A stretch of 64,000 nt of DNA from Octopus sinensis (Eukaryota), in assembly GCF_006345805.1 (NCBI RefSeq), contig NC_043009.1:25730001-25794000 (forward strand), given 5' to 3'. The notes under the pieces were generated by a model. The model was not told where the DNA came from, made no database searches, and worked only from the letters and a program-made list of their open reading frames with translations. Made by a program: the position numbers and the translations under genes. Of the stretch, positions 5,419 through 33,107 are shown in pieces (positions within the stretch are counted from its first letter, which is position 1; the number at the start of each line of letters is the position of its first letter).

Positions 5419-6777
5419 AATTTGTATTTCTTCTCATCTTTCCATTTGTTCTCTTGTTTTTAACAGCAGTTTTGCTAACAGTATTTGAACAGGGTCATTT
5501 GCTTGCTGTCCACCACAAAAGCATGTCCACACTTCTTGATATGCTCTTGATACGTTCCATGATCTTTGTTAAAAAAAAAGGCTCAGTTAGGTGGCGTTTC
5601 TTCCCAGTTCCCTGTGTAGTCATGTCCGGCTGTTTATTATTACTTCACTTGGAAACCAGTGGGGGTTGACATTTGGAAGAGTGTCCAGCTGCAGAAAACT
5701 GATCTAATGTTCTCTCATCTGACCTATGCAAGCATGGAAAAGTAGATGTGGTTGTGTGGTAAGAAGTTTGCTTCTCAACCACGTGGTCCTGGGTTCAGTT
5801 CCACCGTGTGGCACCTTGGACAAAGTGACTTCTACCATAGCCTAGGGTTGACCAAAACCTTGTGAGTGAATTTGGTAGATGGAAATTGAAAGAAGCTTGT
5901 CATATATACACACATATTTGTGTGTGTGCGTTTGACCTCCATGACGGCTTGTCAACTGGTGTTGGTTTGTTTATGTCCCTGTAAGTTAGCACTTTGGCAG
6001 AAGATACCGATAGAATAAGCGCCAGATTTTTAACAAAATAGTACTGTAGTCAATTCATTTGACTAAAATTCCCCAAGTCCAATGACTGATAAAAGATAAA
6101 AGATTAAAACAATTATTTTGGTGCTAGCTTAGTGTGTGGTCTGCCATAGAATCCATAGCCTATGCTGTGAAATTATCTGATCTGGGTTAGGATTAGGGTT
6201 AGACTGCAAGCTATAGTGTAAATGGCCAGGTAGACTTGCACACTAAAGTGGCTCTAATTATTTCTTTTCTGGTGTGGGTTGGATAGATTATAACAGTCTA
6301 TGTTATCTTACACTCCTAGGATCAGAGAAAACCACCCAATTTTGGTGTTATATATGTCTCCCTAGTGTAGACTGGGTGTTTTTTGGTGTACCACCAACAC
6401 TAGAGAAGTTCTCCTATGTGGGAGGAGTCCCACATAGTCCCTTCTACTCTGGAAAAAGTCCCTTCTGCTCTGTTTTACTTCTTATTCTTAGCTATTGCTC
6501 TCTGTGATGAATAACCTGTAATGCTTGTGGAGTTCAAGTCTAGCTCGTACGTTTATGTATATTGTGTTGAAGCTGTATATATTGAATATCGTTTCTCTTG
6601 ATCAGACATACATGTGTGTGTGTGTGTGTATGTGTGCACATGCGTATACACACACACACAATGTATACAGCAAAACATTGAAGCCACTTACTGTAGGTTG
6701 CCATGCAGTGGGACTGAACCCATAACCTTATGGCTAGGAAGCCAGCTTCTTACCACACAGCTATGCAGTTGTACGTG

Positions 6778-6994
6778 CAGTAATTCCTCGACTATTGCGG
6801 GCATTACGTTTCAAAACCTCTCACAGAAATAATTAAAATCTAAAAAAATATAAATACCTATTGGCCGTAGAAACCCACGATATACTGTGGAGTCCCTGAT
6901 ATAAATTTACATATATTAGCAAAAAAAAAAACCCCAAAAAACCGTGATGTACTGAGTGCACAATTGTTGAACTGCGATAAGGCGCGGGATTACT
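6778..6994. mobile_element. Tigger/pogo-like MITE
   Basis: TIRs CAGTAATTCCTCG... / ...CGCGGGATTACTG; a 62-bp derivative lies at 24630-24692. Confidence 0.6.
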
Positions 6995-27852: not shown

Positions 27853-30734
27853 GTAAGTTGTCAAACATTGTCATCGTTTACCCGTAACAACCACCGTGAT
27901 AGCTTTTCATTGCATGTTGTCATGATTAATACTCTTTCTCATTATCGTTAGTTCTAGTAATCTTTTTTTTTAATATAACTTGGCAAAAGTCAGTGTAATT
28001 TTATTTTTAAAAAATCCATTTCATACTCTGATCTGACTGTTCCATTTTTCTTGAATTAATAAGATACATTAAAATGTTGTTTTGAAATGCACAAGATATT
28101 TTTTCATATGTTATAGAAAATGGATTGAGTAAACATTTTATATTGTATCATTTGGTGGAAGAATATATATATATATGGTGGCACTCCATCAGTTACGACG
28201 ACGAGGGTTCCAGTTGATCCGATCAATGGAACAGCCTGCTTTTGAAATTAACATGCAAGTTGCTGAGTACTCCTCAGACGCGTGTACCCTTAACGTAGTT
28301 CTCGGGGAGATTCAGCGTAACACAGAGTGTGACAAGGCTGGCCCTTTGAAATACAGGAACAGCAGAAGCAGAAAGAAAGAGTGAGAGAAAGCTGTGGTGA
28401 AAGAGTACAGCAGGGTTCACCACCACCCACTGCCAGAGCCTCATGGAGCTTTTGGTGTTTTCGCTCAATAAACATTCACAATGCCTGGTCTAGGAATCAA
28501 AACTGCGATCCTACAACCGTGAGTCTTTTGCCCTACCCACTGGGCCATTGCGCCTCCACAAATTATATATATAATTTCAGGAGTATATACAGAAAATAAT
28601 GAAGACAAATTTCATCTTTTTTCAGACACATCTGTATATTTCTGAGATTCCACTAATGTAAATAGAACAAGGGAAAGAAAGTGTATCTTTGAAGGGAGAA
28701 TTTTAGAACTTGATAAAGAGAACTGATGAGGGAGAGAAAAAGACAGTGTGGGAGAATGAAGAAAAGAGAAAGAAGACATAAGTCAAACTATGACTGGCCT
28801 TAAATCTCTTTTATTGTTCTTTTTCCATTTCTTTTTTGTTTTTGTTCTTATTTATTTGAAATTACATTTCAGAAAGCTTCTAGAATGTTTACCAAAGAAT
28901 AAAACAGCAGCCATTTTGTCTACAGATGACTATTTTAAAGATAATCGCAACAATTACTGTTTTTATGTTGAGCGATTATCAGATGCTCATGCCTGGAACC
29001 AGCAGAGAGGTAAATAAAAATATTTCCTCTAGTCTGTGTGTCTGTCTCTCTTTTTTCATTGTTGTATTCCTATTTATGTATGTCTGCCTGTTTATTTATC
29101 TCTCTCACTTGAACCCCCATCAAGCAGGTGTAAACTCCAGCAAGCCAAGTTTGTGAGTCTGTTTTGATTCTCAGTAAGAGAGATGTCTAACTCCATTTAT
29201 GTTACCGATTTACTTAACAAGAAACACCATCATTTCATCTGCTTGAAGATCATGAAAGGGCAAAAGAGCCTAGTCTATAACAGACCAGATTGTTGACCCC
29301 TTGTATGCATTTTAACCCTTTAGCATTGAAACCAGCCATATCCGACCCAGATATTCTACTTGTTTTATGTTGAAGCTATCCAGCTCAAGTGGAGGCGCAT
29401 GGCTTAGTGGTTAAGGTGGCAGCATCACGATCATAAGATTGCGGTTTCGATTCCTGGACTGGGCGACGCGTTGTGTTCTTGAGCAAATCACTTCATTTCA
29501 CGTTGCTCCAGTCTACCCAGCTGGCAAAAATGAGTAACGCTGCGATGGACTGGTTCCCATCCAGCTGGGGAACACATACGCCATTGAAGCCGGGAAACCG
29601 GGCCCATGAGCCTGGCTAGGCTTTAAAAGGGCGCATTTATTTTTATTTATCCAGCTCCGACCTCTCACACCTACCCTATTATGTACATTTAAAAGTAAGC
29701 AATCACCTCTTCAAAATCTCTAAAATACAAGGTAGTTCATGATTAATTTTTAAAAAGGGAATAAATAAGCATCAGATTTGACAGAGTAATGTGAATGCTG
29801 AAAGGTTAATGTATCTCTGTACGTTTTGTGACATTTTTTCCTAGTTCACTTCTCATCTGTAAATTGCTGGAACATTTTGAATGCATTAGGTAGATGATAG
29901 ATAGGTTGTCTGTCATCATTTGTTATGTGATTGTTTATTTGTTCACTTGGGGCTAGCTGTCATTATTCTCTTTCTCTCTCTAAATATCACCATCATCATC
30001 CTTTAATGTCCGCTTTCCATGGTGTCATGGGTTGGATGATTTGACTGAGAATTGGTGAACCAGATGGCTGCACCAGGCTCCAATCTGATCTGGCAGAGTT
30101 TCTACTGCTGGATGCCCTTCCTAACGCCAACCACTTCGAGAGTGTAGTGGGTGCTTTTATGTGCCATCTGCACGAGGGCCAGTCTGGCGGTACTGGCAAA
30201 GGCCACGCTCTAAATGGTGTTTTTTATGTGCCACCTGCACAGGAGTCAGTCCAGCAACACTGGCAACGACCTCACTCGAATGTTTTGTTCACATGCCACC
30301 CGCATAAGCGCCAGTAAGGTGACGCTGGTAACGATCACGCTCAAATGGTGGTTTTTACGTGTCCACCAGCACGTAAATATGTAGACAGAAACTGAAAGAA
30401 ACCTGTTGTATGTATGTATGTATGTGTGTGTGTGTATATATATATCACGTGATCATGTGACCGACCAGTCCATCAGATGTAGTTACACATCGCTCGTCAC
30501 AATGTGTTCGCATTGTTTTAGCCTTTGAATGACGCCACCCCGCTGGCTAAGCGAGCAGGCCAACAGAAGAAAGAGTGGTGAAAGAGTACAGCAGGGATCA
30601 CCACCCCCTGCCGGAGCCTCGTGGAGCTTTTAGGTGTTTTCGCTCAATAAACACTCACAATGCCCGGTCTGGGAATTGAAACTGCGATCCTACGACTGCA
30701 AGTCCGCTGCCCTAACCACTGGGCCATTGTGCTC

Positions 30735-30792
<58 letters not shown>

Positions 30793-33107
30793 CACACACA
30801 CACACACATACATACATACTTTTTTTTATATTAAAGCTGCAGAAACATCTCAAAAAACTGTTTCACATTTCCATTTGTCAGAATCCAGTCTTGATCAGAT
30901 TTGTCTGATGAACGGAAATGTGAAACTCTGAGTAACAATTTTTTGTGATGTTTTTGCAGCTTTAATAAAAAGCAAATCACTCTGCCTTTGGTATTCGAGT
31001 ACTATTTCTTTTCCTCACCTTGTATTGCATTTATATGCTTACTCATGCATGTATGTGTGTGTGTTTGTTTTTGATATCCTGTGGTATTTGTAACTGTTGT
31101 AAATGATTGTCACTATCATACAAAATGTGTCACTCATTTCCAATATTCTGCAAAATCATGTCTGGGTGCGGAGAAATTGGAAAGAGGTGTGGGCTGGTGA
31201 CAGGAAAGGTATTGCAGCTGTAGAAAATCTACCTCAAACTGTCTCGCCCATGCAAGTTTGGAAAAGTGGACTTTAAAATAATGATCACACACATAAAATT
31301 TATTGAATGCCTTTATTAACCAACTTGTCATCTTCTATTGAAAGAACTGAACAGCTGTATAGATGTAAACACAATTTTTTCTTCTTCCTTCTTTCTTTCC
31401 TTCTCTTTTCCATTGACATTCCTTTCAGATACACAGGCACACACACACAGACACACAAAACAAATGCACTCTCTCTCTCTCACTGGACAAAGGTGATGAT
31501 GATAATAAATCCAGACAACTTTTTGAAAAATAACTTTTAATCAAGACCCCCCCCCCCCTCACATTGAGTAGCCACCTGGTTTTGCCCTTTTTAAAGGCCA
31601 AGAATCAACTCATCACTTTCTATTGAAAGAACTGACCAGCTGTATAGATGTTTCTTCTTTCTCTCTTCCTTCTTTCTTTCTCTTTTCCATTGACACTTCT
31701 TTCAGATACACACACACACACACTCTCTCTCTCTCTCCCCATTCCTCACCCTCTTTTACTATCCTATATCTCTCTCCACCCCTACACACTCAATAATACT
31801 ATAAAAAGAGACAAATCCTCCCAAACAAATTCAAATCTGGAGATTCTACCAGAGTAGATGCAAGCGCTAATATATGATTTATAAAAACATGTGACATATT
31901 AAAAATCTGTAAATGTACAACCATCCAGATTTCTGAGTACCTAATTTTTTGTAATATATATATATATATATATAATATATATATATATATGCACACACTA
32001 TATATACACATGATATATATATATATATATATATACATGATGGAAAACTAGCTCAGTAAGGCAGGACGCTACTCCCTGAGAACCCTTTCAGAGCCCCCTA
32101 CCTACATACACAAAGGTGCTAAATTTTAGGGAAAAGAAGGAAGAAATATAACACTGTCCTTAACCGTTTAGCATTTAAACTGGCCAGATCCAGCCTCTCA
32201 CACTTACCTTACATTAAGAAATAATCATCAAAAAATAAACAATCATGTCTTTGAAATCTCACGGCTACATGGTAACACATGGCTAATTCAAATCAATTCT
32301 TTTTCTTGTTTTAGTCCTTTGACTGTGGCCATGCTAGAGCACTGCCTTTAGTTGAACAAATTGACCCCCAGGACATGTTCTTTGTAAGCCTAGTGCTTAT
32401 TCTATTGGTCTCTTTTGCTGAACCGCTAAGGTATGGGGATGTAAACACACCAACATCTGTTGTCAAGTGACGGTGGGGGACAAACACAAACACACACACA
32501 CACGCACATATATGATAGATTTCTTTTAGTTTCCATCTACTAAATCTACTCACAAGGCTGTGGTTGGCCTGAGGCTATAATAGAAGACACTTGCGCAAGG
32601 TACCCTGCAGTGGGACTGAATCTGGAACCATTTCGTTGGGAAGCAAGCTTCTTACCACACAGCCATGCCTGTGAATAAATAAACATTACATTTCACAGAA
32701 ATCTGTATGCCAAAGTGTTAATGCCATTCCCAGTGACATTAACATAACAAATAGAGAGAGAAAAATTCAAAACTATAAACTAAAAACAGACTGCCCTTTT
32801 GGTTTCTAAAATACTCATTTCTTGTTCTGTGAACTCTTCAATTTATCTTCTTGATGCCTTGCTGATATTAATGATGTGTTTCTAATCCCTGGACTTTTCA
32901 ACAGCCCTAAATGCAATGAAAGAGGGAACAGATTTGGTTATTATCGACAACACAAATTTGACCTTATGGGAAATGGAACCCTATGCTAATTATGTGAGTA
33001 TAAATATAATTAGTGCTAATTTTTTTGATGTTTTTTTCTTTTTCTTTGTGAATGTTAAATTGGGTGACCACATGTTGCTGTTAGTTCTCTTTCTCTTTGT
33101 ATGTATG

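Follow-up and report, generated by a model that had tools for sequence, protein, structure and literature searches.

The closest described relatives of the sequence discussed here are the minimal hammerhead ribozymes (min-HHRs) and the hammerheads of Penelope-like elements (PLEs). According to the available part of PMC4209133, monomeric min-HHRs give no detectable cleavage and dimers cut at a low level, and pairs of min-HHRs on opposite strands, 100-700 bp apart, have already been described. The hammerhead of an Anolis PLE cleaves only with the element protein and is dispensable for insertion in vitro, and RNA-seq showed no read ends at its cut site (PMC11167929, in the portion accessible to us). 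An inverted 5′-truncated copy, a one-sided tail and (TA)n targets are described traits of PLEs, and the features of the Hydra clade (RWK, YRDD, DKT, CxCX5C, CxxC and CxH) are laid out in section 11 of the same partly available source (PMC8557442). With respect to the hammerhead core, the accessible text of PMC3088659 reports that a U4C change makes activity considerably lower in vitro and yet still allows viroid infectivity.

The locus that we compare with these systems lies in a 64-kb stretch of octopus DNA, the whole of which was analysed and is called the window below. On the strength of our analysis, positions 30820-31044 of the window are very probably a 5′-truncated, folded-back terminal repeat of a Hydra-clade PLE. 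Its hammerhead is likely to be an inactive passenger that, by prediction, is locked into a hairpin and does not cut the host pre-mRNA.

The Hammerhead Motif and Its Host Intron

The host intron (29010-32904, plus strand, GT...AG) was delimited by protein mapping and falls within the AAA_33 kinase region of the gene. A 918-aa protein, P0001 (AAA_33, KTI12, Smr), which its source names an uncharacterized Octopus sinensis protein, maps in 14 pieces, all on the plus strand and all within the 64-kb window, with exons 28871-29011 and 32904-33005 flanking the intron. We take the gene to be N4BP2-like from its domain layout (AAA_33 plus Smr); a PDB search with the Smr exon returned 0 matches. Because P0001 maps on either side, the initial annotation was right to put the hammerhead on the sense strand of this intron.

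Window letters 30901-30938 on the plus strand read TTGT CTGATGA ACG GAAA TGT GAA ACTCTGAGT A ACAA and, by a check of the pairs, are a minimal type I hammerhead motif with a predicted cut after A30934, in a layout like that of Hydra-2_aMil and Hydra-2_aJap in File S2 (PMC8557442, available in part). Stem I has 4 pairs (30901-04/30935-38), the core CUGAUGA occupies 30905-11, stem II consists of A-U, C-G and G-U pairs enclosing a GAAA loop (30912-21), GAA-A follows at 30922-25, the stem III palindrome ACUC-U-GAGU spans 30925-33, and H17 is A30934. The ten predicted pairs are all either standard or G-U, and no core nucleotide is missing: C3, U4, G5, A6, N7, G8 and A9, then G12, A13 and A14, the A15.1-U16.1 pair and H17 all agree with the consensus, numbered as in the available part of PMC4209133. 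All three stems can form, with stem III palindromic and stem II weak (C-G, G-U). The type I hammerhead that had been claimed for this position is thus real in its 4-bp stem I, full core, GAAA loop and palindromic stem III. The GNRA-capped stem II stands in the window as to loop and pairs and gives way in one respect, as its first A-U pair is not kept across subfamilies, where U, G or A is found at that position. The conserved stem II is therefore 2 bp plus the GNRA loop.

A strict minimal-hammerhead descriptor, run over both strands of the 64-kb window, gave 1 match, at 30901-30938, and it gave 0 matches in 200 of 200 shuffles. A loose core pattern was not above chance in the same window (12 matches against 8.0 ± 4.6 expected). 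The comparison with Rfam hammerhead models that the initial annotation had proposed came out negative, with 0 hammerhead matches at gathering score in the 64-kb window and no hammerhead model among the 25 matches at E ≤ 10 in 30500-31300. The miRNA-precursor models matched at this site score far under their gathering scores and reflect the hairpin described next.

The Fold-Back Stub

The motif is part of a longer insertion with two arms. On the left, a (CA)n/(TA)n microsatellite at 30736-30819 is the likely insertion target, judging from its sequence and from the (TA)n borders of most family copies. Next to it, an inverted, 5′-truncated pseudo-LTR (pLTR) arm without a tail spans 30820-30881 on the minus strand; its core reads CUGACAA, and a 10-nt deletion takes away stem III and the cut site. 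The inverted partial copy that had been reported beside the motif is accordingly real, with these borders. The sense pLTR arm (30884-30971, plus strand) belongs to an older subfamily, B, recognized by its upstream letters TCCAGTCTTGATC, and ends in AATAAA. That AATAAA, at 30964-30969 on the sense strand of the intron and inside the predicted hairpin, was brought in by the stub and is a potential early poly(A) signal. Beyond it, a one-sided tail extension of ~73 nt (30972-31044, plus strand) is homologous, by alignment to locus L308, to the stretch from the pLTR to the ORF start of intact elements, so that the insertion reaches further right than first noted, to ~31044. A short (TG)/(TA)-type repeat at 31045-31064 forms the right border. 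Both an inverted 5′-truncated copy and a one-sided tail, as found in PLE insertions, are therefore present, and the two arms are diverging and carry the deletion.

Copies of the Family in the Genome

A DNA search of the octopus genome itself gave 1,478 candidates, of which 40 were scored, with 76 matches. The copies are short and often palindromic, with inversion points that vary, and one arm often has an extra tail of ~70 nt; most are bordered by (TA)n, the insertion preference of the Hydra clade. Genome-wide, an exact 35-nt pattern of the older motif type matches at least 418 times and one of the younger type at least 3,572 times, both counts being lower bounds, and reversed controls gave 0. 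Among the first 100 young matches listed, 30 form 15 back-to-back pairs no more than 110 nt apart, and the 3′ end occurs on both strands in 31 of 55 loci, which were partly picked with the palindrome as query. The fold-back is a routine insertion product of this family.

The many short palindromic copies of 140-170 bp could also suggest that a palindromic element of MITE-like or retrozyme-like kind, itself non-autonomous, is mobile as a unit of fixed form. We consider this extremely unlikely, since inversion points and arm lengths vary from copy to copy, the tail is one-sided, and single arms continue into a 3′ UTR and ORF. Moreover, the tandem head-to-tail units of non-LTR retrozymes, as described in the accessible part of bioRxiv 10.64898/2026.07.22.740005, are missing. 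The 64-kb window has no second sense copy of the hammerhead and hence no such units.

Other PLE families have stubs of this family nested in the (TA)n tract at their 3′ ends (L106:5461-5595, L107:3430-3654 and 6699-6923, and L131:954-1195), a habit by which a parent ORF can be falsely suggested. Contigs from four sequencing runs contain family copies and leave 30826-30852 and 30880-30897 uncovered, so they are uninformative on the presence, expression or cleavage of the window locus; another contig comparison for this locus was swamped by repeats. In run X19, which we guess to be RNA, a 684-nt contig with a depth of 584 has the family 3′ end in both orientations. It derives from another copy, not from the window locus, and may mark an expressed fold-back.

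The Parent Element

The initial annotation had proposed that the stub is the relic of a Penelope pseudo-LTR whose minimal hammerhead is of the dimer type, and had suggested looking for copies beside a Penelope RT/GIY-YIG ORF. Such copies exist in L307-L310, in sister subfamilies, and the proposal can be narrowed to the Hydra clade by the ORF motifs and by the shared end and tail. Intact elements at L307, L308 and L310, and one copy in L309, have the order pLTR (hammerhead plus tail), ORF of 727/728 aa, ~1 kb, hammerhead, AATAAA and (TA)n, and the window arm and tail align to the end of these elements (alignment to L308). The ribozyme-bearing pLTR 5′ of the ORF is in the sense orientation in L308-L310 and inverted, with a tail fragment, in L307; a pLTR is also present downstream. 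In L308, the two sense hammerhead motifs are 3,353 nt apart. Including more than 20 further loci besides L307-L310, a pLTR with hammerhead flanks an RT plus GIY-YIG-type ORF in sister subfamilies. In several loci, an upstream walk from single subfamily A arms met the end of a same-strand ORF ~1.3 kb ahead of the ribozyme, and a protein search with this ORF end led to a younger family with open frames of up to 766 codons.

The motifs of the parent ORF include RWK in 3 of the 3 full ORFs shown, a YRDD-type RT, and DKT in 8 of the 9 instances translated from the loci examined. Most copies have a CxCX5C linker, whose second C is changed to F in many young copies, as well as CxxC and CxH around a conserved E and N. 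Pfam gave 0 families at E ≤ 1 for the Hydra ORF, and fragments gave chance matches only (E 0.12-0.19). The young family (L307:1372-3552, L308:1252-4741, L309 and L310) has intact 727/728-codon frames with proteins 97-98% identical, and CUGAUGA hammerheads of a ribozyme type other than that of Hydra-1_Obim, with at least 3,572 exact motif copies. It looks recently active.

By its upstream letters, the window copy belongs to subfamily B. Upstream walks within this subfamily reached no ORF, tblastn of B loci found stray or opposite-strand fragments only, and the B upstream sequence has no convincing alignment to subfamily A or the young family. Subfamily B, for which no ORF of its own was found, thus appears to be linked to the Hydra parent through the common ribozyme, 3′ end and tail. 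Two other candidates for the parent were rejected. The PLE families with 781-aa and 775-aa ORFs, found by a Pfam GIY-YIG genome search, have arms beside them in L106, L107, L108 and L131 that are nested (TA)n insertions, and relatives of the ORF at L034/L111 end at the junction.

Evolution of the Core among Subfamilies

The core differs by subfamily (loci L031-L060, L141-L200 and L292-L295): CCGACGA in the old, CCGAUGA in an intermediate, and CUGAUGA in the youngest and most numerous. Taking the family core to be simply CCGACGA was rejected, given the CUGAUGA of the youngest family. The first 100 listed matches of that family have U4 in 72 cases and C4 in 28. Because the youngest family has the full CUGAUGA core, the motif is a live ribozyme design. 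Loop II is GNRA throughout the subfamilies (GGAA, GAAA, GCAA), and stem III is palindromic throughout, which suggests that structure mattered in the mobile lineage.

For the old subfamilies, the core was scored in 42 of 60 loci found by upstream sequence, after removal of 3 query loci, 1 duplicate and 14 loci that scored low or had a gap within the core. Positions 4-5 read CG in 26 of these copies, CA in 9, TG in 5 and something else in 2. The initial annotation had made conservation of the core among genomic copies one test of its proposal; in the old subfamilies such conservation is lacking, with CUGANGA intact in 2 of the 42 copies and CCGANGA in 12. A similar picture comes from the first 100 of the 418 older-type matches (CG 81, TG 13, CA 6; CUGAUGA in 2). 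These counts indicate that the old subfamilies were copied with C4 and that, after insertion, G5 and G8 are lost as easily as U4 is gained. The changes follow the pattern of CpG decay rather than that of selection, with no protection of the core in inserted copies.

The window copy fits in here. Across its two arms, 7 of the 8 family CpG sites have changed, in opposite directions at positions 7-8, and its CUGAUGA probably arose by CpG decay from CCGACGA, although U4 may have been present already at insertion, as both arms carry U at position 4. Genome-wide, 77 sites match the U4 old-type pattern, the window copy included, as expected from CpG decay. Hammerheads with a U4C core would be missed by descriptors requiring CUGANGA. 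Our literature search on U4C found one paper on U4C in a viroid and, among the 25 of 268 matches listed, none that by its title concerns PLE hammerheads; the supplement of PMC4209133 may list such variants.

Can the Motif Cut?

Predictions of folding agree with the masking by fold-back that had been suggested. The stub region is predicted to form a hairpin of -65.4 kcal/mol (z = -10) in which the core and stem II are paired with the left arm. Relative to the free ensemble, the hammerhead fold is predicted to cost 28.4 kcal/mol in 30820-31045 and 28.2 kcal/mol in a transcript ending at 30940, under energy models that ignore tertiary contacts and proteins. The predicted cost falls to 11.8 kcal/mol in 30890-30950 and to 6.0 kcal/mol in the bare 38-mer at 37 °C, and is higher at 20 °C. 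The active fold is thus predicted not to be favoured in its native context, and since the masking arm is 5′ and transcribed first, no opportunity for hammerhead folding is predicted during transcription. The proposal that the ribozyme could cut the pre-mRNA finds no support, given the 5′ masking arm, the single sense copy in the window, the routine nature of the fold-back and the poorly conserved core of the old subfamilies.

A more eventful reading is that the motif has been exapted as a gated intronic ribozyme, whose hairpin is opened at times by A-to-I editing, helicases or a PLE protein so that a dimer formed in trans cuts the N4BP2-like pre-mRNA. The full core on the sense strand speaks for it, as do the loss of the cut site from the antisense arm and a two-sided change in the end pair of stem I, which is C-G in the family and U-A in the window copy, with pairing kept and the family G retained in the left arm. 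The palindromic stem III could give a predicted duplex of -7.9 kcal/mol, the thousands of family copies are possible trans partners, and mammals have conserved intronic hammerheads (PMC3088659, available in part). The human intronic examples in that source, however, are kept across mammals, and locus L018 has the same U-A pair despite a broken core, CCAATGA. The 77 U4 sites fit CpG decay, the G-U pair weakens stem II, and a masking arm that is made first imposes a predicted penalty of ~28 kcal/mol. We consider such gating highly unlikely, and equally so its specific form, in which the hairpin is opened by ADAR editing or by the protein that the intact Hydra family encodes, and a sister copy then supplies the rest of stem III in trans, which leads to cutting of the N4BP2-like pre-mRNA. 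If fold-back-gated cutting were true, retroelement activity would tune a host gene.

The same hairpin could instead matter in its own right, as an imperfect intronic duplex of ~50 bp that is edited by ADAR or gives rise to small RNAs, with an effect on the host gene. Cephalopods edit RNA heavily, the predicted fold-back is very stable, and the sub-threshold matches to miRNA-precursor models reflect a hairpin. Each palindromic copy of the family folds likewise by construction, however, and incidental editing would not be function. The divergence of the arms together with the deletion indicates that the duplex is not being maintained, and a role for the hairpin is in our estimate very improbable.

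We prefer the reading of a truncated, folded-back PLE terminal repeat, whose origin can be sketched from the anatomy of the family and published work on PLEs. In an intact element, the motif is present in both pLTRs, ~3.35 kb apart, and would work as a dimer via the palindromic stem III, possibly aided by the element protein. The GIY-YIG endonuclease of the element would nick a (TA)n tract, and reverse transcription would start at two sites, yielding a tailed arm and a tailless one. Synthesis of both would stop early, just 5′ of the ribozyme, and the two copies would then be joined back to back. Later decay of the insertion changed 7 of 8 family CpG sites and removed 10 nt from the left arm. 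During transcription of the intron, the antisense arm would be made first and pair with the core and stem II as they emerge, and the intron would be spliced out uncut.

Other Elements and Significance

Two more inverted elements were noticed in the window. At 1791-2281, an inverted pair with 85% identity has hammerhead-like cores of the form CTGAAGA...GAAAC at 1876 (plus) and 2207 (minus), and a relative of this sequence, with the core CCGAAGA, is found near a GIY-YIG remnant in L069; a second PLE family is the likely source of this stub. A palindromic element at 2331-2620 has arms ~90% alike, a longer stem II and, at 2496, the core CTGATGA; it is probably a third PLE stub. Elsewhere in the genome, an abundant PLE family (L091:674-4374 and L092-L095), with copies 98-99% identical, has a 781-codon frame with RT and GIY-YIG, preceded by an overlapping 479-codon frame without a Pfam match; a core-pattern search of its 3′ end found no hammerhead.

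The window locus carries little weight by itself, being one decayed copy among thousands in a class already described, and as modelled here it is an ordinary relic and likely inert. A more useful by-product of following it up is a Hydra-clade PLE lineage in the octopus genome whose intact 727-aa ORFs escape detection by Pfam. In addition, the series CCGACGA/CCGAUGA/CUGAUGA offers natural alleles for the open question of whether cleavage by its hammerhead is required for a PLE to be mobile. It is usable for this purpose because hammerheads with U4C are reportedly much less active in vitro (PMC3088659, from the part available).

Comparison with Known Systems

In terms of ribozyme layout, Hydra-2_aMil and Hydra-2_aJap in the available part of Craig et al. 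2021 (PMC8557442) share with the family stem I CTGT/ACAG, stem III ACTC-N-GAGT and a cut after A. The parent ORF resembles those of Hydra-clade C-terminal EN+ PLEs in its RWK, DKT, CxCX5C and CxxC/CxH motifs, and insertion into (TA)n, with a truncated copy in inverted orientation and a tail on one side, likewise agrees with the Hydra-clade PLEs in the same partly accessible paper. The octopus family that it lists, Hydra-1_oBim, has another ribozyme. Compared with the Hydra PLEs published there, as far as the available sections describe them, stem II here is 2 bp plus GNRA, the 3′ UTR is ~1-1.3 kb, the unit is ~3.35 kb as opposed to "generally <3 kb", and the tail is ~73 nt as opposed to 30-40 bp. 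The older subfamilies here also have C at core position 4, whereas ctga is found in every one of the 26 rows for Hydra elements in File S2.

Published min-HHRs, in the accessible text of PMC4209133, share the type I form, short stem I, palindromic stem III and unpaired base after position 9, and their copies too are mostly single or truncated and occur as opposite-strand pairs. Stem II here is shorter than the 7-8 bp of the trematode motifs, and its opening pair is C-G rather than G10.1-C11.1, and the opposite-strand pair is closer than those of min-HHRs, less than 100 bp apart. Finally, the amniote intronic hammerheads in C10orf118 and RECK, as presented in the available part of PMC3088659, are also of type I, on the sense strand of an intron and probably derived from retroelements. 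Those hammerheads have been kept throughout the mammals, form tertiary contacts and are active in vitro in cleavage, whereas the window motif is a minimal, decayed copy of a repeat, paired with its antisense arm.
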